From Chlamydiales bacterium (GTDB taxonomy: Bacteria > Chlamydiota > Chlamydiia > Chlamydiales > JBDQID01): a stretch of 64,000 nt of DNA. The stretch is taken from NCBI GenBank assembly GCA_047611865.1, contig JBLFWS010000001.1:12408-76407 (forward strand). The letters run 5' to 3'. The notes under the pieces were generated by a model. It worked only from the letters and a program-made list of their open reading frames with translations, was not told where the DNA came from and made no database searches. The position numbers and the translations under genes are program-made. Shown in pieces: positions 23,927 through 60,357 of the stretch (the stretch's first letter is position 1; each line of letters opens with the position of its first letter).

Positions 23927-23928
23927 AT

Positions 23929-24771: not shown

Positions 24772-24786
24772 TTTCCCACATAGAAG

Positions 24787-24953: not shown

Positions 24954-25020
24954 GACCTTACATGCTATTGTCTAAATAGTTTTTTTTCAAGTCGGGGCTC
25001 TAGTTTTAAAATATCTAGAA

Positions 25021-25752: not shown

Positions 25753-25767
25753 TGAAAGACCAGAATC

Positions 25768-25977
25768 GGCGTTGTTGCATAACTTAATACGTTTACAATC
25801 ATTTATTTAACCACCGAGAGCACAGAGAGATAGAAAAATGCATAAAGTCTCTCAGAATATGCTATCAACTCATCTGTGATTTTTTATTCTCTCTGTGCCC
25901 TCTGTGCCCTCTGTGGTATCGGTGGTAAAATGTTAATCATAAGCCTCTTGTATACGAATGTTTTATGCAACAACACC
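25768..25977. mobile_element. MITE-like element, family A, copy 3 (210 bp)
   Basis: TIRs GGCGTTGTTGCATAA (25768-25782) and TTATGCAACAACACC (25963-25977). Flanking 9-mers are ACCAGAATC and ACTAGAATC (8/9). It is the reverse-oriented near-copy of 1947-2156 and lies between two genes of the glycan operon. Confidence 0.8.
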
Positions 25978-25984
25978 ACTAGAA

Positions 25985-27557: not shown

Positions 27558-27569
27558 AATTTGTCTCCT

Positions 27570-28568: not shown

Positions 28569-28604
28569 ATCACGACCTTAATAATTTCAAAGTTACAAAA
28601 ACCT

Positions 28605-29600: not shown

Positions 29601-29629
29601 TTCACAGGCCCTTCAAGCTACGTTTACCT

Positions 29630-30226: not shown

Positions 30227-30232
30227 CTACAA

Positions 30233-31789
30233 TTACTTTAGACAATGTTCAAGGGATCTCAGTAAAGCATCTCTATTAACTGAAGACTTATTTCCTACCG
30301 TTTGCACAGCTTGGAAACCCACAGCGTTTCCAATCAACCCCACAACTTGAAGGGGAATGTTTTGCTGCGAGCAAAGCGAGGCTACAGCCAATACGGAATC
30401 ACCCGCCCCTACTCTATCAACAGTTTTACCCATAAATGCAGGAACTTCAACAAAGCCTTCCTTCGGACCGTAGCAGATTACGCCCTCCACTCCTCTTGTC
30501 ACGATGATTTTAGATCCCCCTAGCTTTTCTGAGACTTCTCTAATAATATCTTTTAATGGCCGCCTCTTACTTCGGACATCGATGCGTATTTCATTTTCAG
30601 AAATACTCACGAAATCTGCTCGTGGATACTTGGAGATCGTATTAAATGCCTGATTCCCAGCATTAACCTGTGTATTTACCGCTAGGAACTTAGCTTTCTC
30701 AGCTAGAAGATTGACAGCTTCCGGACTCATCATCCCATGTCCATAGTCTGTTACAATAACAACATCGTAATCCGCAACTATCTCATCCAATTTGCTACAC
30801 AAGGCACTAGAATCATCCGGACTTCCCTCATCATTATCCATCATGTAAACTTCAAAAAGTTTTTGAAGAGGGTAGCTTTCTAAAAACCGTCGTTTTACAA
30901 TCGTTGTTTTACCTTTCGCCATTTTAAGAAAATGTGAAGTTACTTTTGGATCTAGTCTTTCACCGATAAAATCTTCATAGGACTTCTCTGATCCAAGGAA
31001 AGTCACGACATCTACATGTTGAGAAAAACCTGCAACGTGGTTTGCTACAGCAAGAACCCCTCCAATAAAAGTTTCTTTTCTTTCGTAGCAAGCTGCCAAA
31101 ATGGGATCTTTTCCAGGCTTGCCCATTGTTCGACAAAAGTGATAATCATCAATAATCGCATCACCAACCAAAAGAACTTTCAAGGATTTCAATTTCTCAA
31201 TATAATTTTCTATGCCTTGGTAAGTATAACTTTTCGCAAATTCTTTAATAAATGCACTCATTTCAGAAGAGAAAATTGGCAGGTATTTGTTGATCAAACT
31301 AGAAGAGGAAAAGGTAATTTCTTCGGTATAGAAAATTTCCCCACCAACAGATTCAACAGCCTCCTTCTCCAGAACAATTCCGCCTGTTTTATCTTGTGTA
31401 GCCTCTTTATAGTCCCTCCCCTTTGCATAAAAATCAGGCTGAAGCAACTTGATTGTTTCCACAGCATTTGGCCATTGATTAATAGAAACATAATCAACAA
31501 ATCCTAACGCTGCCATAGCTTCGGCACGAAGATTCTCTTCGAATGCTGGACGATTAGGCCCTTTATTGACGTAACAATCAGGAGTTAACGTAACAACAAG
31601 AATATCTCCTGGCTGTTTTGCTTTTTTTAGATGCCGGATATGCCCCACATGCAATAGGTCAAAAACACCATGACAAAGAACGATCTTTTTCCCCTCTTTT
31701 TTAAGGGAAAAAAGAATATCCTTCAGCTCAGTAAGCTGCTTTATACCCCCTGCCGAATCCATGCTTTCATTTGACACCAAATTATCCAT
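30233..31789 (-). CDS. Bifunctional nucleotidyltransferase / PfkB sugar kinase (HldE-like, reversed domain order)
   Basis: The N-terminus carries CHGVFDLLHVGHIRHL (HxGH cytidylyl/adenylyltransferase motif) and FSSSSLI. The C-terminus carries the PfkB kinase motifs VLLVGDAIIDDY and DRVGAGDS. Confidence 0.7.
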   Translation of the reverse strand: MDNLVSNESMDSAGGIKQLTELKDILFSLKKEGKKIVLCHGVFDLLHVGHIRHLKKAKQPGDILVVTLTPDCYVNKGPNRPAFEENLRAEAMAALGFVDYVSINQWPNAVETIKLLQPDFYAKGRDYKEATQDKTGGIVLEKEAVESVGGEIFYTEEITFSSSSLINKYLPIFSSEMSAFIKEFAKSYTYQGIENYIEKLKSLKVLLVGDAIIDDYHFCRTMGKPGKDPILAACYERKETFIGGVLAVANHVAGFSQHVDVVTFLGSEKSYEDFIGERLDPKVTSHFLKMAKGKTTIVKRRFLESYPLQKLFEVYMMDNDEGSPDDSSALCSKLDEIVADYDVVIVTDYGHGMMSPEAVNLLAEKAKFLAVNTQVNAGNQAFNTISKYPRADFVSISENEIRIDVRSKRRPLKDIIREVSEKLGGSKIIVTRGVEGVICYGPKEGFVEVPAFMGKTVDRVGAGDSVLAVASLCSQQNIPLQVVGLIGNAVGFQAVQTVGNKSSVNRDALLRSLEHCLK

Positions 31790-31927
31790 ACCTTAAATCC
31801 TTGAATTCTCTGGCGATGGGTATAAGATAGTTCTCTTCTTGATTATGAATAAACCATTTTTTAATAATAGTCCGCAAGTTTTATTCTCAAGTTTTCTTTA
31901 TTGTCCACCTTGCTAAGAGAATCATTT

Positions 31928-32923
31928 CTACTCAAGAAAAGCAAACCAATCTTTAGTCGCTGCAGATATTCCCTTTTCGTCCCAAACGGGAGCTGTTTTC
32001 CACTGCTCTATCCTTTCAAGCATTTCCTGTACTCCTATCTCAAAAGAAACTGAGGGATTCCAGGCTAATGTTTTTTGTATCTTTTTGATGTCCGCAAAAG
32101 TACTGTCAGGCTCCCCTGGGCGTTTAGGAATATGCACAACATCTCCCCCAAGAAGAGAAACAAGGTGGTTGATAGAATAAGTCCCTCCTGACCCTACATT
32201 TAAAGCTTCTCCAACGACATCAGATTCTGCTGCTCTAACAAAAGCCCTAACCACATCATCTACATAAGTAAAATCACGAGTTTGCTGACCGTCTCCAACA
32301 ACAGTTAGTGGTTTATTTGCGAGCTTCTGAGCAAGAAATACCCCAAAGACAGCCCCGTAGGTCCCCGAGGTCCTCGAACGTGGTCCGAAAACATTAAAAA
32401 GTCTCAGTGAAACAACTGGAAGTTTATATATCTTATGCCAATGAAAAGCATATTGCTCTCCTATATACTTAGTAAAAGCGTAAGGATACATAGGTTGAAT
32501 CGCGGCTGTTTCTGAAGTTGGAAAAGATTCAGGAATTCCGTAACAAGAAGAGGAAGCCGTATAAACAAATCGCTTTACCTTTGCTTGCCTGGAAGCCTCC
32601 AAAACCGCCACTGTACCATCAACATTTGCCTTATGATAATCTAAAGGCATCTGAATCGAAGGTACGATGTCCGCCAAGGCCGCTAAGTGAAAAACATAGT
32701 CTATACCAACGAAGTAATCTTTAATGCCCATTAAATCACTAACATCTACCTGATGAAACTGAAGGTTTTCTGATAACTGGGGAAGGTTTTCTCTCTTTCC
32801 TGTTGCAAGATTATCTAAAACAGTAACATTCGCTTCTTGTTTCAATAAACTTTCAACGAGATGACTCCCTATGAAACCCGCCCCACCAGTAACCAATACT
32901 CTCTTTCCACGCAAATCTTTCAT
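31928..32923 (-). CDS. NAD-dependent NDP-sugar epimerase/decarboxylase-like extended SDR
   Basis: VTGGAGFIGSHLVESLL and YAFTKYIGEQY (YxxxK). UXS/WbpP-like layout. First gene of the glycan locus. Confidence 0.75.
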   Translation of the reverse strand: MKDLRGKRVLVTGGAGFIGSHLVESLLKQEANVTVLDNLATGKRENLPQLSENLQFHQVDVSDLMGIKDYFVGIDYVFHLAALADIVPSIQMPLDYHKANVDGTVAVLEASRQAKVKRFVYTASSSCYGIPESFPTSETAAIQPMYPYAFTKYIGEQYAFHWHKIYKLPVVSLRLFNVFGPRSRTSGTYGAVFGVFLAQKLANKPLTVVGDGQQTRDFTYVDDVVRAFVRAAESDVVGEALNVGSGGTYSINHLVSLLGGDVVHIPKRPGEPDSTFADIKKIQKTLAWNPSVSFEIGVQEMLERIEQWKTAPVWDEKGISAATKDWFAFLE

Positions 32924-43800: not shown

Positions 43801-44926
43801 CCTGAACTCCTGACAAAAGGCTTATTCGAAAAGCAAGAGCTCGCTGCTCCCCTTCACCAAGAGAAATGTCTTGCAATTCCTCACTCATCATCTCAAGAGT
43901 TCTACGGGAGCCTATGTTTTCCAATGAATCTTTTATCTCCAACAAGGCAAATAGCGCCTTTTGGTCGTTAGCAACCCCTTGCCCTATAGCTTCAGCTTGT
44001 TTTTCCTTACGTGTTGTCACAGCTTCAACTGTTGTATACGCCTGTTGAAGCTCTTCTCCACCTGATTGGTGACACTGCGCACACTTTGCCTGCATCAATC
44101 CGGAAACATAGAGGGGTGTTGTTTGAAAAAGCAGGTGATGTCCCGGCCTGCCATTAAACACTCTGGCCATTGCAGGATCGTTTTCTTCATCATTCTCAGT
44201 GAAAACTATTTTATGCCCCTCTGAAGACTCTTCATAGGTTCCATCATAAACCGGCCCATGGGCCCTTCCGGATGTAATAGATCGCCCATTACCATTGTGA
44301 CAAACAACACAACCAATTTCATCAGAGGAATGATACTCAAAAGGACGCTCTTCTCTACCAATCAGTGGGTGCATAGCAAGAGCTTTGGTCATATCCAGGG
44401 AATGCCCATGCTCTTCAATAGATTTCAAATGACTCAGACGTTCAGCCTCATCCAGGCGCCGCTGAATTTCTTCTTCTTCACCATTTTCTCTAAGCTGTTC
44501 TATAAGCTTTTTATCCGTGAGTGACGCTACCTTAGTATCAAGAAGCTTCCATACGTACTCTTCATTTTCGATTTGTACAGGACGGCCATTCTCTCCGATA
44601 ATCATGTTGCCATTTATATCATAAGCTATTTTTGTAGGAGAAAAATGACTCAACTTTAAAGCTACATGACATGTGGTACAGCGATCTATAGTTTCCGGAC
44701 CTTTGTCTTCCTTGGGGATAACAATCTGTTTAATTCCCAATTTAAAATCAGGGGCCCGTTCACCCGTATGAGTTGAGCGAAATTCCTCAAGATCTACATA
44801 AGTATTTTGATAGATCTTATATTCGGGAAACATCTCATAGTAGACGAAAACCCCAAATAATAATGCCGATACCACTGATAGAGAAATCAGTATTATTTGG
44901 TAAATGTCAGCCCGATCAAAACGCAT
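40823..44926 (-). CDS. Membrane-anchored heptahaem c-type cytochrome (1367 aa)
   Basis: An N-terminal TM helix. CXXCH motifs start at residues 83, 206, 282, 504, 620, 844 and 1049. Segments resemble CcoO (GRDIAPRL...NEWLIGHFRNP...RSIMPVM) and CcoP/class I domains (CMQCHG...GTPMPPWG; CSHCHGKEAAGDGP...GTAMTPWG). A haem-less charged helical tail spans ~1125-1367. Confidence 0.85.
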   Translation of the reverse strand: MRFDRADIYQIILISLSVVSALLFGVFVYYEMFPEYKIYQNTYVDLEEFRSTHTGERAPDFKLGIKQIVIPKEDKGPETIDRCTTCHVALKLSHFSPTKIAYDINGNMIIGENGRPVQIENEEYVWKLLDTKVASLTDKKLIEQLRENGEEEEIQRRLDEAERLSHLKSIEEHGHSLDMTKALAMHPLIGREERPFEYHSSDEIGCVVCHNGNGRSITSGRAHGPVYDGTYEESSEGHKIVFTENDEENDPAMARVFNGRPGHHLLFQTTPLYVSGLMQAKCAQCHQSGGEELQQAYTTVEAVTTRKEKQAEAIGQGVANDQKALFALLEIKDSLENIGSRRTLEMMSEELQDISLGEGEQRALAFRISLLSGVQDYLQKTDKYVDDEAVLNAINGEISKILGSEIYLRKLEAEARALASSPTETLLGFLSRHVSNGKGISGSIFAKMAAMEEAGEVIQLMDRVKAPLETAILDQELVHGLRSDAEDAMGSYFRGQQLYMSTACYACHKIGGLSRGQVGPDLSEIGQMYPWYVKEAIVWPQSNLKTSTMPNFKLDHEEVEDLLAFLMAQRKEDKTTSEVLTQVSLKEWAGGKKRAWEKPLPVSEWNDVEVAMDIYTNEGCASCHRLKGFESNVGYRVEKEEASFKEVFKERQWFYRLFPEDLIGSRIVDMIDQKGQEIDKRIVQNVRESSILEKIEEKTPKILSSFYSPFKYAMRAKNHHYEQLIAKAESSTERSRILEEHEHYKDLVQRVFMMYIQEYGLGRDIAPRLHWSGVYRDNEWLIGHFRNPSAYTARSIMPVMPLDESKFYALTNMLRVLGKQNRDSLREIWDERGFDPAMAYEWHCMQCHGEHFHGKGTVSQWIYPIPKNLRDATFLRNLTRERAVNSITHGVQGTPMPPWGETAAAAELGDSSALLKESEIERIVDWLFQSLPGAHVIKSENDVEKWKYTPEDVLKELYEEKDVLQGETEDKVDDSMSEVLSSGFIPNFLLATKFFKSEEKKIGKAPEVDEVFDVKDAVEGVEEKEFFIKQKYYTEKNISEGGSLFLANCSHCHGKEAAGDGPRSATMEEAKPRMLTNLPWLKTRDDLRLLRSIKYGVPGTAMTPWGDKTNTLQRIQLVMFIRSLSVEKKHREDMVSVLFNAFETTGRAISDTRNIEGKKLNVLQGEYKRALRARQDNYEKSQEGTITLEEAARSYSKELVVMDHLKKRKEVDAILLNLKDEFDDEQKFYSEIGLRFIAKKADEKIITKLFEIIALNKGRYTRLNGDLLMEKDPYRERFMQNKAQEIVRDLDHQVDVNQRKVDRLRGKLPSLERSDELAKVGERLEAMKGMKAVLLSQMRLAAQSRSKQAEIYENYKEKIATFVSDRS

Positions 44927-44941
44927 TATCGTCTCCCACCA

Positions 44942-46267
44942 TTAGTGTCTTGCAAAGTTCTCCGTCCATGGCCAAATCCATCCCCAGTTTGCCCCTCTGA
45001 AGTACGTTCCAATTATTACCAGGATTCCCTGTGTCGTCATAAAAAACGTGTACAAAAATATCGCCATATATCGGCTGCGGTGATACCACACGCCTGATCC
45101 ATAGGGATTTCTATCAAGATAAGGGACTACCATAAGCCCCACAACAATTAACCCTGGTATTCCTACACCACCCCAGAAAGCACTATAAGCAACCATCTCT
45201 TGAAGACCCAGAAAATACCACGGAGCCTTTGAGGGATTGGGGGGTTTTGTTGCGTTCGCCGCCTCTTCCAATGGTGCATCTATAAATGATAAAATCATGA
45301 TCAAAACTACGGTAAACATAAATGCAATTAACTCGGCACGAAGAAGGTGCGGCCAAGTAAATATGTAGTTATATGGTCCCCTATCAACAGTGGGACACGT
45401 CCCTCTAACAAGCTCCATTAAGCCGTAGGTTCTGCGAACCCCCGGCGCAAAAGTCTCCTTAGTATCCGATCTTTGTACAACACGATAGGGTTCTGGTGAA
45501 ACTTTGTCCGGAGGACGCGCCAAGCCACCATCTTTTCTAATACGCCAGAAGTGTACTCCTATTAAAATCCCCGCGGCAAGGGGGAGCACCATCACGTGAA
45601 GTACGTAAAATCGTATGAGTGCATCTTGTCCAACGCTGGTGGACGCAATAAGCATAATACGGTTAATGTTGTGTTCCATTCCGGGTATTCCCGGAGCATA
45701 GCCAGCAATTTCAGATCCTACAGTTACCGCCCAAAATGCCAGCTGATCCCAAGGAAGAAGGTATCCAGTAAAAGACAGCAGGAGGGTAAGCACCATTAGA
45801 ATCACGCCAATTACCCAGTTAAATCTTCTTTCTCCTTTATAGGAACCCATATAGAAGACACGCGACATATGGAGAAAGACGAACAACACCATCATGTGTG
45901 CACCCCAGCGGTGCAAATTACGAAACATCTGAGCGAAAGGCGTCACATCCTGCCAGTCTTTCATAATGTCGTAAGCCCTGTCTTCTGCAGGCACATAATA
46001 AAACATAAGCACCACACCAGTGATCACCAGTGTAATAAACAGGCTCATCGTAATGGAGCCGAGACCCAAAGTCTTGAAAAAATCCGTTGTGCTTTTGTGA
46101 CATTTCACCGGGTGAATATGAAGGAAGAAGTTCTTAAAAACAATTTCTGATCGGTCAACATCATTGTTGGGATAACCATGACGAAAGATGGAACGTACCA
46201 CTAGTTTAGGAAGGTTCTCTAGGTACTCCAACCAGGTCTCTCTCTTTTCCCCTTTAAAAACTGCCAT
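44942..46267 (-). CDS. Cytochrome b (fused b6 + subunit IV-type) of a Rieske/cyt b complex
   Basis: FRNLHRWGAHMMVLFVFLHM and RFYVLHVMVLP...GVHFWRIRK (bis-His haem ligands), plus LPWDQLAFWA (PEWY-region equivalent). Confidence 0.85.
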   Translation of the reverse strand: MAVFKGEKRETWLEYLENLPKLVVRSIFRHGYPNNDVDRSEIVFKNFFLHIHPVKCHKSTTDFFKTLGLGSITMSLFITLVITGVVLMFYYVPAEDRAYDIMKDWQDVTPFAQMFRNLHRWGAHMMVLFVFLHMSRVFYMGSYKGERRFNWVIGVILMVLTLLLSFTGYLLPWDQLAFWAVTVGSEIAGYAPGIPGMEHNINRIMLIASTSVGQDALIRFYVLHVMVLPLAAGILIGVHFWRIRKDGGLARPPDKVSPEPYRVVQRSDTKETFAPGVRRTYGLMELVRGTCPTVDRGPYNYIFTWPHLLRAELIAFMFTVVLIMILSFIDAPLEEAANATKPPNPSKAPWYFLGLQEMVAYSAFWGGVGIPGLIVVGLMVVPYLDRNPYGSGVWYHRSRYMAIFLYTFFMTTQGILVIIGTYFRGANWGWIWPWTENFARH

Positions 46268-46305: not shown

Positions 46306-46806
46306 CTAAACATACCATGCAACCTGTGGATCGTGTATTAGTTTTGTTTTATCTGCCAGAAGTTCTCCTGACGCTCCTTTTGAAACATTAAAATATACCA
46401 ATGGGCTAGGAGCAGGCCCTCCCGTATTAAAGCCATTCCGATCATATGTTGATCCGTGACATGGACATTGATATCCTGTTTCTACAGCGTTAACAGTGCA
46501 GCCCAAGTGAGTACAAACTGCCGTTTGAACACGTACTTTTCCAGAAACCACCTCAACAAAACACTTGAACTTCTCCAGAAAAACCTTTCCCTCTGTTGCC
46601 AGAACATCCTCTGGCCTTCCAATTGAAAAAACGCTAGGCGGAATTTTCAGAGCGTTAGGGTAAAGAAAACCCATAAGCGCAACACTCACAGCTCCTCCAA
46701 CACCCATACACACACCCGTTCCCATCAAGGCAAGAAAAGTCCTTCTTGTAATTTTTGGGTCATTGCTCTTAGGATCCACGTTTAATGAATTTCGAAACCT
46801 AGGCAT
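46306..46806 (-). CDS. Rieske [2Fe-2S] protein with Tat signal
   Basis: TRRTFLALMGTG twin-arginine signal, CTHLGC and CPCHGS cluster boxes. I prefer the ATG at 46806 (AAGGAGG 5 nt upstream) over the track ATG at 46821, which sits inside that SD. Confidence 0.85.
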   Translation of the reverse strand: MPRFRNSLNVDPKSNDPKITRRTFLALMGTGVCMGVGGAVSVALMGFLYPNALKIPPSVFSIGRPEDVLATEGKVFLEKFKCFVEVVSGKVRVQTAVCTHLGCTVNAVETGYQCPCHGSTYDRNGFNTGGPAPSPLVYFNVSKGASGELLADKTKLIHDPQVAWYV

Positions 46807-46817
46807 AACACCCTCCT

Positions 46818-46961
46818 TCATTCTCCATTTTGTTCCTCATCACGAAACATCTGGTATTTAACATCTTCCAAATCATCGAACTGCCCTTTTTTCCAAAAAT
46901 AGACAAAGACTCCAGTCGCCGCTAACCCACCAATTAATGTCGCTGCAAGATATACTACCAC
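46818..46961 (-). CDS. Unannotated 47-aa FixQ/CcoQ-like single-TM micro-protein
   Basis: Translated by hand as (V)VVYLAATLIGGLAATGVFVYFWKKGQFDDLEDVKYQMFRDEEQNGE*. GTG start at 46961 with GAAGGGG upstream, and an in-frame TGA at 46976-46974 bounds it. The stop TGA (46820-46818) overlaps the Rieske SD region. It shares FVYxW(K/R)KG..D....KYQM..DEE with the ORF at 37867-38085. Confidence 0.5.
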   Translation of the reverse strand: MVVYLAATLIGGLAATGVFVYFWKKGQFDDLEDVKYQMFRDEEQNGE

Positions 46962-46978: not shown

Positions 46979-48811
46979 CTATCCAATCCACCGAAAAGAG
47001 TAATTCATCGTATCCATTGTAACAGCTTGAGTAGGACATTTTTCGGCACACAACCCACAACGTATACAAAGGTCTTCATCTTTCAACATTGCAGACCCTG
47101 CTGTATTAAGTTCTTCAGCTGTCATTTCAGAAGAATCGAATCCATAGTTATTGTCCACAGCTTTACGCATATTGCCCTCTCCCCAATCCAAGTTCAATTT
47201 CGATAAAGGTATCAACGTAAGACAATTTGTAGGGCAAACATCTACACAACCATTACATTTTATACAAAGAGATCCATCAAATACTGGACTTACATGACAC
47301 TGTAAACAACGACTTGCTTGCTGATGCGCCTCTTCTGCAGTATAAGGATTTTCAACAATATTTAGATTTTTCCGCCTCTCCTCTGCCGGCTGAAGAGAAG
47401 GAAGAGACCATTTTGTACTCAGGTATTCTTTATCTCGCATAGGTGGAATTGTTCTGAACTCTCCAACGAACTCCTGGTAAGGCTTTGTTCCTCTCAAATC
47501 ACTGTCAATAGCCCTTGCAGATTCTTGCCCATGACGTATTGCTGTAATGAACAACGCAGGCCCATATCCGGCATCCCCCCCACAATAAATCCCATTTACA
47601 GATGTTCTACCAGTTCCTCTTTCTACTTTTATAATTCCCCTTTCAAGGGTAAGGTCAGCTTTCTTGTCCCACCCGTCAAAAAGACTCGTATCCATTCCCT
47701 GGCCGATAGCTAAAGCTATGGTATCACAAGGCACAACATACTCTGTTCCTTCAACAAACTCGGGTGAAAAACCCCCTTTATGATTAAAAAGTCGAGAGAT
47801 CTTCTGTACACGCAGCCCAATAATCTTCCCGTCGCTGTCACGTTCCACCGCCTTTGGACCTAGCCTGTTGAGGACCTCAATTCCCTCTTCAAGCGCATCT
47901 TCAATCTCAAATTCATCAGCTGTTTGTTCATCTCGAGATTCCAGGCAAACCAGAGTAACCTTATCAGCTCCATTGCGTATAGAAGACCGCGCCACATCGT
48001 AAGATACGTTACCCCCACCAACAACGACTATATGATTACCTATTCTCCATTTCCCCCCGCCCGTAATCACCTTAAGATACTCTACGCCTCTGATTATGTC
48101 TGCCTGGTCTGTTCCGGGAATGGGTAACTCTCGGGACTTCCATAAACCATTGCCGATAAAAATCGCGTCATACTTTTCCTGCATTTCAGTAATCGTTATA
48201 TCTCGGCCAACTTTCGTATTATAGTGGATATTAGCGCCCAAGTATTCTATCGCATAGCATTCGTTGATGATTACATCATTTTTCAGTCTGTAATTGGGGA
48301 CACCATAGGTTAACATCCCCCCTGGCATACTCATCATTTCATAAATATCGACAGAATATCCCAAGCGAAGAAGGTCGTGTGCTGCCGTTAACGAGGCCAC
48401 TCCCGCCCCTATGCAACCCACCTTCATTCCATTCGGTTTTGGGTTGGTCGTTCCACGTGAGTAGCTAAATTCCAGAGCTTTAATGTGAGCTTCCTTATCC
48501 ACCCCGAACCACTCATCGAGAAAACGTTTTTGTGCACGAATGGTAAGAGTTTTATCTACTCGATCTCTCCGACAGGCTGTTTCACAGGGAGCCCCGCATA
48601 TCCATCCACAGATAGACGCGAAAGGATTAGGCCCTCGAGCAATTTTATAACCCTCCAAAAGGTTACCTGCTTGTAACGCAAGCATATACCCTCGAGCATC
48701 TGTATTAACAGGACATCCGTCGCGACAGTCGATTTGTTTCAGATAATAATCTAGATCTGGAATAACAACGTCATAACTATCTTTATAGATATCAACCAGC
48801 TCTTTTGACAC
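46979..48811 (-). CDS. GltD/SudA-like NAD(P)H-dependent Fe-S flavoprotein with C-terminal 2x[4Fe-4S] ferredoxin domain
   Basis: An N-terminal Cys cluster (CRDGCPVNTD...CGWICGAPCETAC), VGCIGAGVASLTAAHDL (FAD GxGxxG) and a second dinucleotide fold (VVVGGGNVSYD). C-terminal CIKCNGCVDVCP and CIRCGLCAEKCP. Confidence 0.8.
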   Translation of the reverse strand: MSKELVDIYKDSYDVVIPDLDYYLKQIDCRDGCPVNTDARGYMLALQAGNLLEGYKIARGPNPFASICGWICGAPCETACRRDRVDKTLTIRAQKRFLDEWFGVDKEAHIKALEFSYSRGTTNPKPNGMKVGCIGAGVASLTAAHDLLRLGYSVDIYEMMSMPGGMLTYGVPNYRLKNDVIINECYAIEYLGANIHYNTKVGRDITITEMQEKYDAIFIGNGLWKSRELPIPGTDQADIIRGVEYLKVITGGGKWRIGNHIVVVGGGNVSYDVARSSIRNGADKVTLVCLESRDEQTADEFEIEDALEEGIEVLNRLGPKAVERDSDGKIIGLRVQKISRLFNHKGGFSPEFVEGTEYVVPCDTIALAIGQGMDTSLFDGWDKKADLTLERGIIKVERGTGRTSVNGIYCGGDAGYGPALFITAIRHGQESARAIDSDLRGTKPYQEFVGEFRTIPPMRDKEYLSTKWSLPSLQPAEERRKNLNIVENPYTAEEAHQQASRCLQCHVSPVFDGSLCIKCNGCVDVCPTNCLTLIPLSKLNLDWGEGNMRKAVDNNYGFDSSEMTAEELNTAGSAMLKDEDLCIRCGLCAEKCPTQAVTMDTMNYSFRWIG

Positions 48812-55560: not shown

Positions 55561-56177
55561 ACTCTATCCCCCAAAATCGTTTACTGGCCTACTTGTTTGC
55601 CCTTGGACTCATTCCTTTATTGGTGGTTTTCTACATACACCTTTCCGAAAGCTCTGAGCTCTACAAACTCGAACAAAGAATAGATGCCATTCAGCTCACA
55701 CTGCATCTTGATGATGGAAAACACTCCCGAAATGCTGCCACACGACTCCAGCACGAAAATTCAGACCCCCTCTTTATAGACTCTGAATTAGAAAGTTTGT
55801 CTTTTCTGGGTGATGAAATTAAAAACCTTAAGGCTATCACCCAAGACCCCTCATTTCCCGACACTCCTGCGATCAAAAAGCGCCTCGACTTCTTAGCTGG
55901 ACCCAATAATCGCCTTGTCTTCACTGAAGATCTTATACAGTCCTCTCCACACAGCAAGGAAACCCTTGAGGTCATGAGGCACCCGGTAGAGGTTGATATT
56001 GACGACCTCTATAAAATTCTTGCAACTGTTGAAAACGTAAGCATAGGTCCTTATAGTCCACAACCCAATAGCCCTCAGCTTATTATCACAGATTTTAAAC
56101 TAGAGCGAAAAAAATATCCCAACAAAAATGAAGTTTTCGTTTTAAATATAAAGTTACTCAAAAGAGAGTTTTTATAA
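55557..56177 (+). CDS. Bitopic membrane protein (PilO/GspM-like topology), function unknown
   Basis: N-terminal TM (LLAYLFALGLIPLLVVFYI) followed by a ~170-aa soluble domain. 4-nt overlap with the upstream PilM-like gene. The assignment rests on topology and context only. Confidence 0.3.
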   Translation: MNSIPQNRLLAYLFALGLIPLLVVFYIHLSESSELYKLEQRIDAIQLTLHLDDGKHSRNAATRLQHENSDPLFIDSELESLSFLGDEIKNLKAITQDPSFPDTPAIKKRLDFLAGPNNRLVFTEDLIQSSPHSKETLEVMRHPVEVDIDDLYKILATVENVSIGPYSPQPNSPQLIITDFKLERKKYPNKNEVFVLNIKLLKREFL

Positions 56178-56180
56178 GCC

Positions 56181-57464
56181 ATGCACAGCAAAACCCTTTC
56201 TATCCTCAGGTCTTCCTTTTTCTTTTGTCTATGCGCTTTTTCAGCCCCTGGCTGTTCTTCCCCCCGGCGGGTCGGACCCGGAAATATGTCAAGCATCCAC
56301 ATCATAGATCGAAACGGCCTCACTGAAACCGTAAACTCCGGAGAGCGCCTCAAGCAATATGAAAACAAAAACTTTCTGCAACCCCAACCGTTTCAAAAAA
56401 TCACCCGCTCCTTTGGCCGCGATTCCGGCGGAAATATCCCCTCACGAATCACAAGCTACCACCCCAACGGACAACTCAAGCAATATCTTGAGGCATTAAA
56501 TTCCCGAGCCAACGGTGTTTACCGGGAGTGGTACTCAAGCGGAATAATCAAGCTAGAGGTTTCCGTCATTGGCGGCGTTGCTGATCTCAATACCGCTGCA
56601 GAAGAAAGCTGGCTTTTCGATGGACAGAGTAGCGCTTGGGATGAAGGCGGCAACTTAACTGCCACAATCAACTACCTAAAAGGGGCCCTTCATGGCAGCT
56701 CTTTGTACTATCATCCCAATGGTCGATTATGGAAAACCATCCCCTATGAAAATAACAAAATTAATGGCAGCTTGTTCACATATCTTGAAGACGGATCCCC
56801 TTTATTGAAGAGTGAGTATCAAAACGGCGTTAGACATGGTGTAACCCAGCGCTTTTGGAACGACGGGCAGCTTTCGGCAGAGGAGTTGCACAACAAGGGC
56901 TTTCTTTATCAAGCCAAGTACTTCAGCAGCTCTGGGAACCTCATCGCTGAAATAAATGACGGTGATGGACACAGGGTTACCTTCGGAAAAAGTCAGCCAT
57001 ATGAAGTACAAGAATTTCACAAAGGCTCCCCCGAAGGATCCGTCGAAGTGTTTAATGAAGACAGCGACATTTCACGGGTTTACCATCTTAAAGACAGCCT
57101 TAAACATGGCGAAGACACCGAATACCACGAGGGCTCTAGCGTCCCCAAAATGACTATTAATTGGCACGCGGGCCTTATACAGGGCATTGCCAAGACCTGG
57201 TATAAGAGCGGCGCCCTTGAAAGCCGAAGAGAGATCAACTCGAACAAAAAAAACGGTCTTTCCACTGCATGGTACATCAACGGATCCGTCATGCTTATTG
57301 AGATGTACGAAAACGATAAGCTTGTAAAAGGTGAGTACTTCAAAAAAGATGAGAGCTCTCCAATATCTCGCGTTGTTGACGGAAGTGGCACTGCGACCCT
57401 CTACGATTCCGGAGGAAGCTTCATACGGCAAATTGCTTATCATGAGGGAAGGCCCTCTGCATGA
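56181..57464 (+). CDS. MORN/YwqK-type repeat lipoprotein
   Basis: Signal peptide ending in lipobox-like FSAPGC. More than 8 repeats of the Y..NG.L....Y.NG..(H/N)G type (e.g. YHPNGQLKQY, YYHPNGRLWKTIPYENNKINGS). Confidence 0.65.
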   Translation: MHSKTLSILRSSFFFCLCAFSAPGCSSPRRVGPGNMSSIHIIDRNGLTETVNSGERLKQYENKNFLQPQPFQKITRSFGRDSGGNIPSRITSYHPNGQLKQYLEALNSRANGVYREWYSSGIIKLEVSVIGGVADLNTAAEESWLFDGQSSAWDEGGNLTATINYLKGALHGSSLYYHPNGRLWKTIPYENNKINGSLFTYLEDGSPLLKSEYQNGVRHGVTQRFWNDGQLSAEELHNKGFLYQAKYFSSSGNLIAEINDGDGHRVTFGKSQPYEVQEFHKGSPEGSVEVFNEDSDISRVYHLKDSLKHGEDTEYHEGSSVPKMTINWHAGLIQGIAKTWYKSGALESRREINSNKKNGLSTAWYINGSVMLIEMYENDKLVKGEYFKKDESSPISRVVDGSGTATLYDSGGSFIRQIAYHEGRPSA

Positions 57465-58021
57465 CCCCCGCCCCATCAGTCACAAACCAAAAAGCCTCTA
57501 TCCGAGAAGTTTTGAGGTCAATCCGAGAAAACATTTCACCCCTCGAAAGAGAAAGGGCTGCCCTTCATCTATTTGAAGCTCTAAGGCGCATAACAAACAA
57601 ATACTCCCTTGTTTTGTCCTATGCCAGCTTTTCCTCCGAAATAGACACCTGGCCCCTTAACTACCACCTCGCCACCAAAGAACGACTTCTCCTCCCCCAG
57701 CTCCAGGGTGACAAGATACGGATTTTTAAAGTTACGGATATCGACAATCAATTAAAAACATCCCCGTATGGTATTATGGAGCCAATTCCCGAGCTCTGTG
57801 CCGAAGTCTCCCTCTCCACGATTCCCTTTGCCATCATTCCCGGACTTGGCTTTGATTCCCAAAATAATCGTCTCGGCTACGGAAAAGGCTGTTATGACCG
57901 CATCCTTTGCAAGATGCCCGCCTGCCTCACCTGTGGCACAGGCTTTACTCAACAACTTGTAGGCTCTCTACTCCCCACTACAAAAAAAGACATTCCCTTA
58001 AAAGGCTGCCGTCTTTTCTAA
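57461..58021 (+). CDS. 5-formyltetrahydrofolate cyclo-ligase
   Basis: PGLGFDSQNNRLGYGKGCYDR is the family signature. 4-nt overlap with the upstream gene. Confidence 0.8.
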   Translation: MTPAPSVTNQKASIREVLRSIRENISPLERERAALHLFEALRRITNKYSLVLSYASFSSEIDTWPLNYHLATKERLLLPQLQGDKIRIFKVTDIDNQLKTSPYGIMEPIPELCAEVSLSTIPFAIIPGLGFDSQNNRLGYGKGCYDRILCKMPACLTCGTGFTQQLVGSLLPTTKKDIPLKGCRLF

Positions 58022-58140
58022 ATAACTTAATATAGCAGTACTAATTTGTACTATTACTCCCCTGACATTCCCCTTGACGACAACGCATAAAAGCGTAAAT
58101 ATCATGCTTTTTTCAACTGTACTTATAAAGGAGTAGTCGG

Positions 58141-59217
58141 ATGTCCAGCAAGGAAAATTCCTCTAGGAAACAAGCTCTAGATGCTGCAGTAGCTCTTATC
58201 AAAAAGCAATTCGGCGAAGGTGCCATAATGTCCATGGGCGCAGGTGCCGCCACTCAACACGTCGAGGTTATCAAAACAGGGGCCATTTCCCTGGACATCG
58301 CCTTGGGAATTGGCGGTGTTCCACGTGGTCGCGTCGTAGAAATTTACGGTCCTGAATCATCTGGAAAATCCACCCTCGCAACTCACATTGTTGCCAGTGC
58401 GCAAAAAAATGGAGGCCTTGCCGCCTACATCGATGCAGAACATGCGTTGGATGCAAAATATGCCGCTCAAATTGGCGTCAACCTTGATGATCTATTGATT
58501 TCACAACCCGATTGTGGAGAGGAAGCTTTAAATATCGCTGAAATGCTCGCGCGTTCCAATGCGGTTGACGTTATTGTAATCGACTCTGTTGCAGCACTCG
58601 TTCCCAAAAATGAGCTCGAAGGCGAAATAGGCGATACTCACATGGGCTTGCAGGCTCGCATGATGTCACAGGCTCTTAGAAAGCTTACTGCCACACTGGC
58701 CAAATCCAAAACCTGTGCTGTTTTCATCAACCAGATTCGTGAAAAAATTGGTGTCGTATTTGGCAACCCTGAAACCACAACCGGCGGAAGAGCTTTAAAA
58801 TTCTACTCTTCAGTTCGCCTGGATATTCGCCGAATCGGCAGCATCAAGGGAGCTGAAAACCGTGATGTCGGGAACCGCGTAAAAGTAAAAGTCGCTAAAA
58901 ATAAAATGGCCGCTCCTTTTCAAATAGCTGAATTTGACATCATGTTTGGAGAGGGCATTTCCCACACCGGATCCATCATTGATGTAGGAGTAGAACAAAA
59001 CATCATCGACAAAAAGGGCGCTTGGTTTAGCTACAAAACAACTCGCCTGGGGCAGGGAAGGGAAGCGGTAAAAGAAGAGCTAAAGAAAAACCCTGCTCTT
59101 TTCGCTCAAATCGAAGCTGATATTCTGGAAAAGTTCCCTCTCCTTTCTTCAAAGAAAGAAAAGGCCCCAGAAAAAGAACGCATCAAAGAACTCAACAAAG
59201 TGCTTGCCGGCGTATAA
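58141..59217 (+). CDS. recA: Recombinase RecA
   Basis: [11 protein letters not shown] Walker [11 protein letters not shown] and the L1/L2 loop blocks. AAGGAG lies 7 nt upstream of the ATG. Confidence 0.95.
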
Positions 59218-59228
59218 AAAAACATTCC

Positions 59229-59265
59229 GCACCGGGTCGAAACGAAGATCGTCGCGGCCCGGTGC
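59229..59265. terminator. Candidate bidirectional terminator hairpin between convergent recA and polyprenyl synthase genes
   Basis: 8-bp GC-rich stem GCACCGGG/CCCGGTGC with a 21-nt loop. There is an A-run upstream but no clean U-tract downstream. Confidence 0.35.
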
Positions 59266-59284
59266 CTGTCTCAAGAATCGAGCA

Positions 59285-60184
59285 CTAGACCTGTTTTGCC
59301 TCATGCTCTTCTGCGGCTTTAGAAAGCCCGGAGACAAGTTCCTGAAACCCCCCCTCGAGTAGACCCAGTCCACTCAGGCTCTCCTTAAGAAAAGAAAGCT
59401 CCTCCTGAAGCACCTTTAAAGCTTTTTCAAAGCCAGCAACTACAACAAAATTTGTTTTACAGCCTCGGCTAGTGTCCTGCTCAACATCTCCAAAATCGTC
59501 TGCTATTTGAAATGCCATACCGAAATGCCACGCAGCCCTTTTAACCTCCTCGATTCGATCAATGCGTCCGCCCCCAAAAAGCCATCCAAGAACAAAGGAT
59601 AATTCAAAAAGAGCAACCGTTTTGGCTCGTATGACCCGCCGTAATGTCTCAAGGGTCTGATCTGGCGGATAGATGTCTAGAAACTGCCCTCCGGTAGCCC
59701 CCGCAATACCTGTATTGTAGGTCACGTTTTCCAAAGCGCGCATACAGATCTCATCACCCGAACCAGACAAAAAGTTATCGGGATTGTCACTTCGGGCGTG
59801 GGCATTTTTATAAATACATCGATATCCAGCTGAAATTAAGGCGTAGCTGGCCAATAGAGCCACTGCCTCGCCATATACCTTGTGGAGAGAGGGCTTACCC
59901 CTCCTCATGTCGTCGTTGTCCATACAGGGCAAATCATCGGCTATTAAAGAAGCCGTATGAAAATATTCTGCTGCAAGAGCGACATTTGTAACATCTGTTT
60001 TTTGATCTAAGGCCTTTGCCACCATAAAAACAATAATAGGTCTCAGTCGCTTACCTCCATTGAGGAGTGCATACTCGCAAGCATCGCGAAGCTTGCTTTT
60101 CTCTCCAATTTGAGGAATGCTTTCAGCAATAGCCTTTTCGGCATACTCTAAAAAGTCTGCGAGCTGTGTATTTTGAAGTGTCAT
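59285..60184 (-). CDS. Short-chain polyprenyl diphosphate synthase (FPP/GGPP synthase family)
   Basis: First Asp-rich motif LIADDLPCMDNDDMRRG and second FQIADDFGD. Confidence 0.85.
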   Translation of the reverse strand: MTLQNTQLADFLEYAEKAIAESIPQIGEKSKLRDACEYALLNGGKRLRPIIVFMVAKALDQKTDVTNVALAAEYFHTASLIADDLPCMDNDDMRRGKPSLHKVYGEAVALLASYALISAGYRCIYKNAHARSDNPDNFLSGSGDEICMRALENVTYNTGIAGATGGQFLDIYPPDQTLETLRRVIRAKTVALFELSFVLGWLFGGGRIDRIEEVKRAAWHFGMAFQIADDFGDVEQDTSRGCKTNFVVVAGFEKALKVLQEELSFLKESLSGLGLLEGGFQELVSGLSKAAEEHEAKQV

Positions 60185-60357
60185 GTTTTATAACCGTGTA
60201 ATGTAGTTAAAAGCGACCCTGCCCTTAAAGAAAATGAAAATAAGGCTGTCGATATGATAGCCCATATCAAAATGAGGGAGCGTTAGACAATTCTGTCTAG
60301 TTAACAGAAAGAAGATTAACAAAAAAAGAACACAAACGTCAAGTTCTCATAATCAAA

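Follow-up and report, generated by a model that had tools for sequence, protein, structure and literature searches.

A GltD-type flavoprotein encoded with Rieske, cytochrome b and cbb3 oxidase genes in a Chlamydiales bacterium: a candidate NAD(H)-binding subunit of an anammox-type complex

In a Chlamydiales bacterium, a gene for a protein resembling the small subunit of glutamate synthase (GltD) lies close to genes for a Rieske protein, a cytochrome b and a terminal oxidase, which raises the question of what this flavoprotein is wired to and in which direction its electrons flow. We examined it within a window of 64 kb, i.e., the whole stretch of DNA that was analysed. The initial annotation had suggested that the protein couples NAD(P)H directly to the complex or, alternatively, that it accepts low-potential electrons from quinol oxidation. 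Both ideas, as well as the gene linkage, are already in the literature for anammox bacteria and for cytochrome b subfamily G (PMC12954380; available text of PMC5600118, section 9), and the type of complex is itself known (Kartal 2013; Dibrova 2013/2017; Hauser 2025, PMC12954380). The reading that we prefer, and to which we give an even chance of being right, is that the flavoprotein is the cytoplasmic NAD(H)-binding FAD/FeS subunit of an anammox-type Rieske/cytochrome b complex and that it is fed by NADH. As judged from the sequence, the novel features of the window are a fused cytochrome b devoid of the haem-cn motif, a Leu-Glu pair in the NAD(P) fold, and a cbb3 oxidase joined to the complex in the operon.

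Domain anatomy and cofactor of the flavoprotein

The gene occupies positions 46979..48811 on the minus strand, on which all other features described here also lie. It starts with GTG and encodes a 610-residue FAD/NAD(H)-binding iron–sulfur protein of the GltD/NfnB/StnC type; an ORF scan returned exactly the coordinates first assigned to it. A plus-strand reading of the same interval was rejected because stops occur throughout its translation. A public copy with 100% identity (P0001) exists in a Chlamydiales MAG. Across chlamydial families, the flavoprotein is about 75% identical.

Pfam searches, in which the matches of the flavoprotein exceed the gathering scores, bore out the N-terminal cysteine clusters and the two dinucleotide-binding folds noticed in the initial annotation: a Fer4_20 domain (residues 26–102, 48506..48736, E = 1.3e-14) precedes the FAD- and NAD(P)-binding Rossmann domains (Pyr_redox_2, residues 131–428, 47528..48421, E = 3e-22). 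They equally recovered the C-terminal 2x[4Fe-4S] ferredoxin domain (residues 509–597, 47021..47287), in which both of the motifs originally quoted, CIKCNGCVDVCP (C516–C526) and CIRCGLCAEKCP (C582–C592), gave a Fer4 match and are separated by an insert of about 55 residues. Among 64 flavoprotein homologues, the eight cysteines of the ferredoxin domain are all invariant, and the GxGxxG motifs at residues 135–137 and 265–267 are conserved. The Fer4_20 region holds six of the eight ligands of two GltD-type [4Fe-4S] clusters (Cys29, 33, 68, 72, 76, and 80), of which Cys33, 72, 76, and 80 are invariant and Cys29 and 68 at least 90% conserved in the same homologues. Cys502 and Cys505 are supplied by a segment that a permuted-sequence alignment located at residues 475–505 (...EEAHQQASRCLQC; 47297..47389), and that is homologous to the N-terminal helix and CxxC motif of GltD/NfnB while being placed here after the FAD/NAD domains. 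Indeed, when residues 475–505 are joined to residues 25–130, they align contiguously to residues 14–138 of T. maritima NfnB (E = 3e-18) and also to residues 21–129 of GltD, and R501, C502, and C505 are invariant among the 64 homologues. Compared with GltD, the N-terminal cluster domain has undergone a circular permutation, and StnC and NfnA share this permutation, with the same helix and CxxC segment after the FAD domain. In total, 16 cluster cysteines are conserved or invariant (C502/505/29/33, C68/72/76/80, C516–526, and C582–592), and the four FeS-cluster motifs, whose occupancy is predicted, could form a chain between FAD and a membrane partner.

The AF2 model of the protein is confident (pLDDT 94.2, pTM 0.91), and its best Foldseek matches are 9bov_A, 8oh5_C, and 9n5u_A (TM-scores on target 0.77–0.80). 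The top matches in both sequence and fold are NfnA/StnC of the NfnABC/StnABC transhydrogenases (9bov, 8oh5, 9n5u) and NfnB/NfnI-L (4ylf, 5jca), all of which share with it two [4Fe-4S] clusters flanking FAD. These enzymes, however, bind NADPH (YRR), carry extra formate-dehydrogenase-like or other domains, and work with soluble NuoE/F-like or NfnA partners, whereas there is no such partner here and the ferredoxin domain would point to a membrane cytochrome b; flavin bifurcation is not implied. The Fer4_20 and Pyr_redox_2 core is also that of GltD/SudA (matches to TIGR01316/01317/01318; structures 6s6s and 2vdc), from which the flavoprotein differs by its permuted topology, its added ferredoxin domain, the replacement of Arg-Arg, and the absence of a GltB/SudB partner.

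Public annotations call the protein formate dehydrogenase beta, NADPH-Fe(3+) oxidoreductase beta, sulfide dehydrogenase alpha, or glutamate synthase small chain, names that are mutually inconsistent homology transfers. NCBIfam equivalogs, including TIGR01316/01317/01318, all score far under their curated cut-offs, and NF009410 (PRK12771, "NAD(P)-binding protein") reaches 400 bits, under a curated cut-off of 516, in a full-length match (residues 24–600 vs. 45–563 of 566). Taken at face value, the public names would support a different explanation, in which the protein is a soluble NAD(P)H:ferredoxin/acceptor oxidoreductase (Nfn/SudA/GltD-like or "formate dehydrogenase beta") that is merely cotranscribed with the respiratory genes, for instance for cofactor maturation, or whose partner is encoded elsewhere. 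The absence of any membrane segment would suit such an enzyme: the protein has no TM segment, no signal peptide, and no hydrophobic segment, and because it lacks the first two we predict it to be cytoplasmic. The conflict among the annotations weakens this explanation, as does the lack of a suitable partner, since no GltB-, NfnA-, SudB-, FdhA-, or PyrD-like gene was found within the 64-kb window. In particular, the remark in the initial annotation that no GltB-like partner is adjacent extends to the larger ORFs of the window, since every ORF of at least 180 aa was either scanned with Pfam or is far too small to be GltB.

The cofactor had originally been left as NAD(P)H. An NAD(P)-binding fold is present, as was then proposed, but NADPH was downgraded as the cofactor, given Glu291. 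The alignment places the sequence C-L-E-S (residues 289–292, 47936..47947) where beta-2 of the NAD(P) fold ends, so that Glu291 sits where NADPH-binding relatives carry Arg-Arg. YRR stands at this position in the anammox subunit as well as in NfnB, NfnI-L, StnC, and NfnA, whereas 82 of 83 non-anammox family members, that of the window included, have Leu-Glu, and the member from locus L017 has Gly-Glu. Because Leu-Glu replaces the NADPH-type Arg-Arg, NADH is by this rule of thumb more likely than NADPH to be the cofactor.

Operon layout and conserved gene linkage

The flavoprotein gene is followed in tight order by genes for a CcoS-like peptide, the Rieske protein, a fused cytochrome b, a seven-haem cytochrome c, CcoN, and CcoO. 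Because the gaps or overlaps between them range from −4 to 38 nt, the genes from the flavoprotein to CcoO very likely form a single operon, and this spacing, together with the presence of CcoN and CcoO downstream, agrees with the earlier view of the flavoprotein gene as the first of a bc-oxidase operon. The Rieske and cytochrome b genes, described as its neighbours, do lie downstream on the same strand, but a 47-aa ORF (46818..46961) separates the flavoprotein from the Rieske gene. It encodes a single-TM peptide of the CcoS/FixS family of cbb3 maturation proteins (PF03597, 27.1 bits for a gathering score of 23.1); a gene is called at the matching position in the related loci L001 and L003, and tblastn found matches in all chlamydial loci and in L004, L006, L007, L010, and L015. 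A maturation gene adjoining that of the flavoprotein is one more point in favour of a soluble, merely cotranscribed enzyme. Two small membrane-protein ORFs (37578..38133) close the operon; the one that comes first is similar to the CcoS-like peptide, Pfam gives no match for either, and comparable small genes lie 3′ of ccoO in L001, L002, and L003. These ORFs could be CcoQ- or CcoS-like. A scan for promoters and terminators gave no more matches than in shuffled sequence, and a literature search returned nothing specific on this operon in chlamydiae.

Co-occurrence with Rieske and cytochrome b genes across genomes had been proposed as a check on the role of the flavoprotein, for which a lack of conserved linkage would have been damaging. 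By a scan of genome contigs with alignment A1, we surveyed the neighbourhood of the orthologue in 80 species genomes from about 12 phyla, using the window's own operon proteins as the only queries in the 80 related loci. Rieske and cytochrome b genes are same-strand neighbours of the orthologue in 74 of these genomes, in phyla that include Acidobacteriota, Ignavibacteriota, Verrucomicrobiota, Planctomycetota, Chloroflexota, Nitrospirota, Zixibacteria, and Calditrichota. Five of the six genomes without linkage are represented by truncated contigs, and the sixth (L017) is a true exception, with no Rieske or cytochrome b gene within 8 kb. This linkage is not due to chance. The module as such was found in at least 284 species genomes from about a dozen phyla, and the flavoprotein gene may be first, last, or placed before cytochrome b–Rieske, depending on the lineage. 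In chlamydiae, the flavoprotein, Rieske, and cytochrome b genes and the multihaem cytochrome gene are kept in all eight loci examined, and CcoN/CcoO in seven, the eighth contig stopping before reaching them; the same operon stands between different flanking genes in three chlamydial genomes, and five further chlamydial loci carry it too. A single operon that includes the cbb3 oxidase occurs in chlamydiae, Ignavibacteriota, and some Acidobacteriota. A linkage that outlasts operon rearrangements over about 12 phyla is hard to reconcile with a soluble enzyme of unrelated function, even though L017 by itself would be in line with one.

Membrane partners and likeness to anammox complexes

In the Rieske [2Fe-2S] protein (46306..46821), a twin-arginine leader (ITRRTFLAL) and a TM anchor accompany the motifs CTHLGC...CPCHGSTY; in the PDB, it is matched best by the two Rieske proteins of the Kuenenia R/b complexes (9rk3_A, E = 4.9e-17; 9rk4_A, E = 8.3e-15), which rank before b6f PetC. 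The fused cytochrome b (441 aa, 44942..46267; Pfam/NCBIfam) consists of a b6-like four-helix part and a subunit IV-like part, preceded by an N-terminal extension of about 50 residues that carries His50 (codon 46118..46120). None of the solved cytochrome b structures aligns to this extension, the earliest alignment starting at residue 56. His50 aligns to His62 of Kustd1481, which has been proposed to bind an extra haem b situated between the monomers on the cytoplasmic side (PMC12954380, section 3.3); this haem is, in the Kuenenia complexes, an AlphaFold3 prediction (PMC12954380). His50 is invariant in 79 of 79 flavoprotein-linked cytochromes b, and such an extra histidine and extension in every linked protein would have little place beside a soluble oxidoreductase. 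The Qo motif APWY, which is family-specific, is found in the window protein and in all 75 of 75 linked cytochromes b. No role was given to Cys56, because it is specific to chlamydiae and unconserved in the family. The CxGG haem-cn motif is absent from the window cytochrome b, which has TLGLG instead, and its cysteine is kept in just 4 of 79 family members; haem cn was rejected for the window protein, where the canonical Cys is Gly68. A split b6/subunit IV with CxGG is described as a variable feature within subfamily G (available text of PMC5600118).

The next gene encodes a membrane-anchored cytochrome c of 1367 aa (40823..44926; Pfam/NCBIfam and motif count) with seven CxxCH motifs and an N-terminal anchor, which is conserved across chlamydial loci. 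Its C-terminal part is weakly CcoP-like (TIGR00782, 44 bits vs. a cut-off of 180), the operon has no separate ccoP, and this single protein seems to replace cytochrome c1, cytochrome cy, and CcoP. The following gene (39379..40812; COX1, E = 8e-78) encodes CcoN, to which catalysis falls in a cbb3-type (C-family) haem-copper oxidase. Its alignment with P. stutzeri CcoN (3mk7_A) spans the entire protein and shows that all six His ligands (to haem b, haem b3, and CuB) are retained, as is the cross-link Tyr of helix 7. The CcoO-like monohaem subunit (38099..39382) has a FixO domain at residues 268–370, one CxxCH at residue 281, an N-terminal TM segment, and an N-terminal insertion of about 260 residues. 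As predicted from these features, the operon terminates in a bona fide O2 reductase. As in the bc1–cbb3 supercomplexes (Rhodobacter capsulatus CIII2CIV, 6xkw), a Rieske/cytochrome b complex would feed cbb3 through membrane-anchored c cytochromes; here, in contrast, all parts belong to one operon and a cytoplasmic NAD(H) flavoprotein is added.

Work by Kartal et al. in 2013 and by de Almeida et al. in 2016 reportedly deals with the Rieske/cytochrome b complexes of Kuenenia stuttgartiensis, and that of Dibrova et al. in 2013 with cytochrome b subfamily G operons containing NAD(P)-binding FeS oxidoreductases. The Kuenenia complexes that bear an NAD(P) oxidoreductase subunit are R/b-2 and R/b-3 (Kustd1480-85 and Kuste4569-74, with subunits Kustd1483 and Kuste4570; PMC12954380). 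We used as reference a Kustd1480-85-type anammox locus (L084), the residue numbering of which agrees with PMC12954380. The flavoprotein is 32% identical to its 566-aa NAD(P) oxidoreductase subunit (288 bits, E = 4e-94, residues 13–605 vs. 3–564), and the window cytochrome b is 50% identical to the anammox cytochrome b6, N-terminal extension included, and 45% to SUIV. This full-length homology upholds the suggestion that the flavoprotein works with Rieske/cytochrome b and not with GltB.

Kuenenia R/b-2/-3 and the window share the permuted GltD module and 2x[4Fe-4S] ferredoxin domain, which together contain four cluster motifs; a flavoprotein gene within an operon that encodes, besides Rieske protein and cytochrome b, a large multihaem cytochrome c; the cytochrome b extension with the His proposed for the extra haem, APWY, and the nearest Rieske structures; and a basic residue facing the proposed extra haem (Lys591 in the flavoprotein, corresponding to Arg550 in Kustd1483). 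They differ in the cofactor motif (YRR there, Glu291 within CLES here), in cytochrome b (split b6 with CxGG and a separate subunit IV there, fused and without CxGG here), in gene order (the flavoprotein is first here), and in the high-potential acceptor, which is a nitrogen oxide there and would be O2 here because the operon runs on into ccoN, ccoO, and a CcoS-like gene. Moreover, Kuenenia is an anaerobic autotroph, whereas the chlamydial host is an aerobic intracellular heterotroph. Homologous Kuenenia subunits have been reported in membrane complexes (available text of PMC5600118, section 9, citing de Almeida 2016), which also counts against the soluble enzyme, an explanation that we regard as improbable. 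From gene order and the anammox complexome cited in PMC5600118, we infer that the flavoprotein is physically associated with the complex, an assignment that would correct the inconsistent names under which it is deposited (formate dehydrogenase beta, glutamate synthase small chain, sulfide dehydrogenase, and others). According to the available text of PMC5600118 (Dibrova et al. 2017), cytochromes b of subfamily G are accompanied "in many other cases" by large Cys-rich oxidoreductases that bind NAD(P), a statement with which our survey of 80 genomes agrees, and the long cytochromes b of clade G′ lie within large conserved operons of unknown function; that text makes no mention of the cbb3 fusion, the NADH-type motif, the invariant His50, or the APWY signature.

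Proposed electron path and its direction

Because the flavoprotein has neither TM segment nor signal peptide, the Rieske protein a Tat leader, and the cytochrome c an anchor, NAD(H) and the c haems would lie on opposite sides of the membrane, which would leave cytochrome b as the only possible connection. Since one operon holds the R/b complex, the seven-haem cytochrome, and cbb3, that operon would specify every step between NAD(H) and O2. Cytochrome b has been argued to be a general membrane anchor for FeS-wired dehydrogenases (available text of PMC5600118). In the scheme that we prefer, the flavoprotein would dock on the cytoplasmic face of the cytochrome b dimer, and electrons would pass from FAD through the four [4Fe-4S] clusters to the extra haem b, at His50 of each monomer, and then to haem bN. 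Electrons from NADH would enter cytochrome b on the cytoplasmic side, where quinone would be reduced, and quinol would be oxidized at Qo, with electrons flowing to the Rieske protein, the seven-haem cytochrome, cbb3, and finally O2. The net result would be a built-in, non-pumping NADH dehydrogenase feeding a bc–cbb3 supercomplex.

The least certain step is the direction. The bacterium, which depends on a host, is an aerobic heterotroph whose NADH comes from the TCA cycle, and because of this lifestyle and of the NADH-type Glu291 we consider NADH input more likely than quinol bifurcation to NAD+. The same architecture could nevertheless run in reverse: quinol would bifurcate at Qo, one electron going through the Rieske protein, the seven-haem cytochrome, and cbb3 to O2, and the other through bP, bN, the extra haem, and the four FeS clusters to FAD and NAD+, so that NADH would be made from quinol-level substrates. 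The only mechanistic study of the anammox homologues favours quinol bifurcation to NAD(P)+ for Kuenenia, drawing on AlphaFold3 models and on Rieske potentials that were measured to exceed +300 mV, and argues that NAD(P)H-to-quinone flow is wasteful where a coupled NADH dehydrogenase exists (PMC12954380). The latter argument applies here too because nqrA is present in the window and Na+-NQR would already serve NADH oxidation. In addition, the window Rieske protein carries both high-potential determinants (CPCHGS and Tyr), the APWY Qo motif is specific to the family, and the haem-cn CxGG is lost in most family members, in which the exit wire could replace the Qn site. As the window cytochrome b has no CxGG, it may lack a Qn quinone-reduction site, and NADH input for quinone reduction would then fail. 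On the other hand, an aerobic host-dependent heterotroph supplied with NADH by the TCA cycle has no obvious need of quinol-made NADH, and the change from NADPH-type YRR, as found in the enzymes of the autotrophic anammox bacteria, to NADH-type Glu in 82 of 83 non-anammox members better fits a catabolic role. Moreover, electron transfer from the outer to the inner side would oppose the membrane potential and would be endergonic if the pool is ubiquinone. We regard quinol bifurcation as possible but rather unlikely in this organism.

The complex could also act as a valve for redox balancing or sensing, equilibrating the low-potential b-haem chain with NAD+/NADH in either direction and limiting semiquinone and ROS at Qo when the quinone pool is over-reduced, without being a main catabolic or anabolic route. 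A reversible FeS/FAD wire would suit both directions, nqrA in the window points to a separate main NADH dehydrogenase, and the cluster is found mostly in aerobes and microaerobes, with high-affinity cbb3 oxidases adjoining it in several lineages; but a four-cluster subunit of 610 aa that stays about 75% identical among chlamydial families suggests a major function under strong selection, and we hold such a valve to be very unlikely. NADH input remains the reading that we prefer. More tentatively, and with considerable doubt as to the whole, it may be carried further to a hard-wired NADH-to-O2 machine, in which flavoprotein, four FeS clusters, extra haem b, cytochrome b with quinone, Rieske protein, seven-haem cytochrome c, and cbb3 would unite an NADH dehydrogenase with complexes III and IV in a single assembly; the anammox members of the family would run the opposite way, to NADPH, the switch being marked by Glu vs. 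Arg-Arg and by the loss of haem cn.

Rieske/cytochrome b complexes that bear an NAD(P) oxidoreductase have mostly been treated in the literature as an anammox curiosity. Quinol-driven NAD(P)+ reduction, if true, would amount to a new way of coupling energy, and anammox bacteria are hard to work with; the aerobic carriers, some of them cultivable, offer systems for testing the mechanism. A chlamydial pangenome paper gives complex IV as cytochrome o/bd only (PMC8242063), and the cbb3-linked operon revises the respiratory chain assumed for environmental chlamydiae.

The flavoprotein gene and its operon

The flavoprotein is encoded on the minus strand at 46979..48811, where an ORF with a GTG start codon specifies 610 residues and coincides exactly with the gene proposed in the initial annotation; the plus-strand reading of the same interval was ruled out, its translation being full of stops. 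A public protein from a Chlamydiales MAG (P0001) is identical over 610 aa and is annotated as "formate dehydrogenase beta subunit". Pfam places Fer4_20 at residues 26–102, Pyr_redox_2 at 131–428, and two 4Fe-4S motifs within 509–597. Both motifs quoted earlier for a C-terminal 2x[4Fe-4S] domain were recovered (C516–C526 and C582–C592), and this domain assignment therefore stands, as does the lack of a GltB-like partner, none having been found among the larger ORFs of the 64-kb window. The top NCBIfam model is PRK12771 ("NAD(P)-binding protein"), which says little about function; it aligns over the full length with 400 bits, below its cut-off of 516, and the GltD, AegA, YgfK, and SudA-like equivalogs all scored far under their cut-offs.

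The operon lies on the minus strand throughout, with intergenic distances ranging from −4 (overlap) to 38 nt. The Rieske and cytochrome b genes, initially described as the neighbors of the flavoprotein gene, are indeed both downstream of it, but an intervening ORF had been overlooked. Located at 46818..46961, it encodes a 47-aa CcoS/FixS-like peptide with a single transmembrane (TM) segment (PF03597, 27.1 bits vs. a gathering score of 23.1), its stop shares 4 nt with the start of the Rieske gene, and its position is kept in the chlamydial loci as well as at several acidobacterial and ignavibacterial ones. The Rieske protein (46306..46821) has a Tat leader and is followed by a fused cytochrome b (44942..46267), made of a b6-like and a subunit IV-like part, and by a 1367-aa cytochrome c (40823..44926) with one TM anchor, seven CxxCH motifs, long haem-free stretches, and a weakly CcoP-like C-terminal domain. 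The operon contains no separate ccoP, and the length of this multihaem cytochrome ranges from 1143 to 1368 aa in L001–L003, the three chlamydial loci for which genes were called. CcoN (39379..40812) keeps every His ligand and the cross-link Tyr of Pseudomonas stutzeri CcoN, and the CcoO-like protein (38099..39382) has an N-terminal insertion of roughly 260 residues that separates its N-terminal TM helix from the FixO haem domain (268–370). Two small membrane ORFs (37578..38133) end the operon, both without a Pfam match; the first (core MHYSMVIAF...KGRLDMDEEPKYQMMKDEE) is similar to the upstream CcoS-like peptide, and the pair may represent CcoQ- or CcoS-type subunits.

Fold, iron–sulfur clusters, and predicted cofactor

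An AlphaFold2 model of the flavoprotein built with 64 homologs is confident (pLDDT 94.2, pTM 0.91). Among solved structures it comes closest to 9bov_A, 8oh5_C, and 9n5u_A, the large NfnA/StnC subunits of bifurcating transhydrogenases (NfnABC/StnABC); NfnI-L, NfnB, Xfn, GltD, and DPD come next. The "RCLxC" motif of GltD/NfnB-type proteins is absent ahead of Cys29 and occurs past the flavin domains as R501-C502-x2-C505, a post-FAD placement of the CxxC segment also seen in StnC and NfnA. When residues 475–505 are joined to 25–130, they align contiguously with Thermotoga maritima NfnB 14–138 (E-value 3e-18) and also with GltD 21–129, which indicates at the sequence level that the core is a circularly permuted GltD module. 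This module supplies eight Cys for two [4Fe-4S] clusters, and the 2x[4Fe-4S] ferredoxin domain, which contains an insert of roughly 55 residues, adds two more, giving four predicted cluster motifs, two GltD-type and two ferredoxin-type. Each of the 16 cluster Cys is either invariant or conserved in at least 90% of the 64 homologs.

In Rossmann folds, an acidic residue at the end of beta-2 favors NAD, and basic residues favor NADP. The flavoprotein reads C-L-E291-S at this position, where all NADPH-binding structural relatives have Y-R-R, and the acidic E291 thus points to NADH as the probable cofactor. The anammox subunit has Arg-Arg where the window protein has Leu-Glu, and Leu-Glu is found in 82 of the 83 non-anammox family members.

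Anammox relatives and conserved gene linkage

The two top PDB matches of the window Rieske protein, ahead of b6f PetC, are 9rk3_A and 9rk4_A, the Rieske proteins of Kuenenia stuttgartiensis complexes bearing an NAD(P) oxidoreductase. By using the 9rk3 sequence, we located the corresponding anammox locus (L084), whose residue numbering agrees with Kustd1480-85 and whose genes encode, in order, the Rieske protein, cytochrome b6, a 566-aa oxidoreductase, subunit IV (SUIV), and a 945-aa multihaem cytochrome. The 566-aa oxidoreductase aligns end to end with the window flavoprotein (32% identity, 288 bits), and the window cytochrome b shares 50% identity with the anammox b6 and 45% with SUIV. In the anammox complex, an extra haem b is predicted at the cytochrome b dimer interface, with His62 of Kustd1481 as its ligand and Arg550 of Kustd1483 facing it (Hauser et al. 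2025, PMC12954380); the window equivalents are cytochrome b His50 and flavoprotein Lys591. A His equivalent to His50 is present in 79/79 flavoprotein-linked cytochromes b, which share an NxFLH N-terminus, and no solved b6/bc1 cytochrome b aligned to the N-terminal extension of the window protein. The Qo motif APWY is likewise invariant (75/75), and the Rieske motif CPCHGS is followed by Tyr in chlamydiae and mostly by Phe elsewhere.

According to Dibrova et al. (2017, PMC5600118), FeS oxidoreductases that bind NAD(P) accompany "subfamily G" cytochromes b "in many other cases", and the long cytochromes b of clade G' belong to large conserved operons of unknown function. Given these statements and the anammox homology, the complex type is already known, though biochemically uncharacterized. 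Our literature search found no paper describing such a complex in chlamydiae, and a chlamydial pangenome study gives complex IV as cytochrome o/bd only (PMC8242063). The window variant differs from the anammox one in that its cytochrome b is a fusion with TLGLG in place of the CxGG haem-cn motif, and in that the operon adds the seven-haem cytochrome, the CcoS-like gene, and cbb3 oxidase genes, which implies that the high-potential sink is O2. Most flavoprotein-linked cytochromes b also lack CxGG, the Cys being retained in the anammox protein and at loci L053, L070, and L075. Separately, residue 56 of the chlamydial cytochromes b is Cys (HPVKCHK), 12 residues ahead of the lost haem-cn Cys position, and Val in all other family members.

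Gene order is identical to that of the window in Parachlamydia UV-7, in one other 1.8-Mb chlamydial genome, and in a Rubidus-like contig: flavoprotein, (CcoS-like), Rieske, cytochrome b, a 1100–1370-aa cytochrome c, CcoN, CcoO, and two small ORFs, with unrelated flanking genes among the three. The operon also occurs in five further chlamydial or Waddliaceae loci. Chlamydial flavoproteins are about 73–92% identical to that of the window and fall into one cluster at the 50% identity level; the next representatives do not exceed 45%, yet have the same length and motifs. A survey of one genome per GTDB species, scanned with an alignment of cluster representatives, found 284 relatives, of which we examined the best 80. 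Acidobacteriota are in the majority among these 80, which also include Ignavibacteriota, Verrucomicrobiota, Planctomycetia, Phycisphaerae, Bacteroidota, Zixibacteria, Nitrospirota, three Chloroflexota orders, Calditrichota, Victivallales, Kryptonia, Eisenbacteria, Abyssobacteria, and Myxococcales. Rieske and cytochrome b genes lie in the same cluster and on the same strand in 74 of the best 80, downstream in 71 cases and upstream in 3. Of the remaining six, five are contigs that end early, and only L017 (Capsulimonadaceae) truly lacks both genes, with none within 8 kb and divergent motifs (FGES, CAKICPM). CcoN and CcoO are likewise clustered in Ignavibacteriota and several Acidobacteriota (L004–L008, L010, and L015), and in a neighbor-joining tree the cbb3-linked groups fall in the same region as the chlamydial clade.

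The order itself varies: cytochrome b precedes Rieske after the flavoprotein in two Chloroflexota loci (L019 and L043), a third (L031) reads flavoprotein–cytochrome b before the contig ends, and the flavoprotein comes last, after Rieske, cytochrome b, cytochrome c, CcoN, and CcoO, in three Acidobacteriota (L007, L010, and L015) or after cytochrome c, CcoN, and CcoO in a fourth (L008), whose contig is cut upstream. Persistence of the linkage despite such changes argues for a functional unit. The conserved linkage on which the initial annotation had staked its proposal is thus present in the chlamydial loci and far beyond, and supports association of the flavoprotein with the Rieske/cytochrome b complex, of which it is very probably the NAD(H) flavoprotein.

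Electron flow and further features of the window

Since no hydrophobic segment or signal peptide was found in the flavoprotein, its predicted NAD(P)/FAD site must be cytoplasmic. The Rieske center and c haems are periplasmic, and cytochrome b is the sole possible connector between the two sides. Domain architecture, cluster ligands, membrane topology, anammox homology, and gene linkage are direct observations; beyond them, the flavoprotein would dock on the cytoplasmic face of the cytochrome b dimer, and electrons might pass between FAD, the four clusters, probably the His50-bound haem, and haem bN. Two directions, both already published for anammox, can be considered. The one we favor, with about even confidence, is that NADH is the donor and that the flavoprotein would serve a bc–cbb3 supercomplex as a built-in, NDH-2-like entry point, because the host is an aerobic heterotroph, because the cofactor motif is NADH-type whereas the autotrophic anammox enzymes are NADPH-type, and because, according to Dibrova et al. 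(2017, PMC5600118), cytochrome b commonly anchors FeS-wired dehydrogenases. A less probable direction is quinol bifurcation to NAD+. The published energetic argument for Kuenenia favors bifurcation to NAD(P)+ and calls NAD(P)H-to-quinone flow wasteful where a coupled NADH dehydrogenase exists (Hauser et al. 2025, PMC12954380). The window organism has such a coupled NADH:quinone oxidoreductase, as indicated by nqrA (Na+-NQR subunit A, 2508-3884, minus strand; it stands alone, with no other nqr genes adjoining), which speaks against NADH input, and the loss of haem cn might mean an exit wire in place of a Qn site. The remaining, smaller weight falls jointly on the flavoprotein not being a subunit or acting as a redox valve. 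The main value of the family is that it is widespread and tied to O2 respiration, and that its aerobic members are tractable systems for studying the proposed mechanism.

Elsewhere in the window, four tandem head-to-tail paralogous ORFs of 809–814 aa (10413-20142, minus strand) adjoin a cluster of sugar-nucleotide, transketolase, and methyltransferase genes (20244-32923); two of the four, 10413-12842 and 17704-20142, were scanned, and both carry a Glyco_trans_1_2 domain at the C terminus. A 722-aa GreA with an N-terminal extension of roughly 570 residues is encoded at 6974-9142 (plus strand), and a 585-aa ankyrin-repeat protein at 34991-36748 (minus strand). GC skew is strongly negative, about −0.2, across 1–56 kb regardless of gene strand and climbs to −0.11 and then +0.03 in the final 8 kb (56000-64000), a shift that may mark an origin or terminus of replication or else a strand switch.
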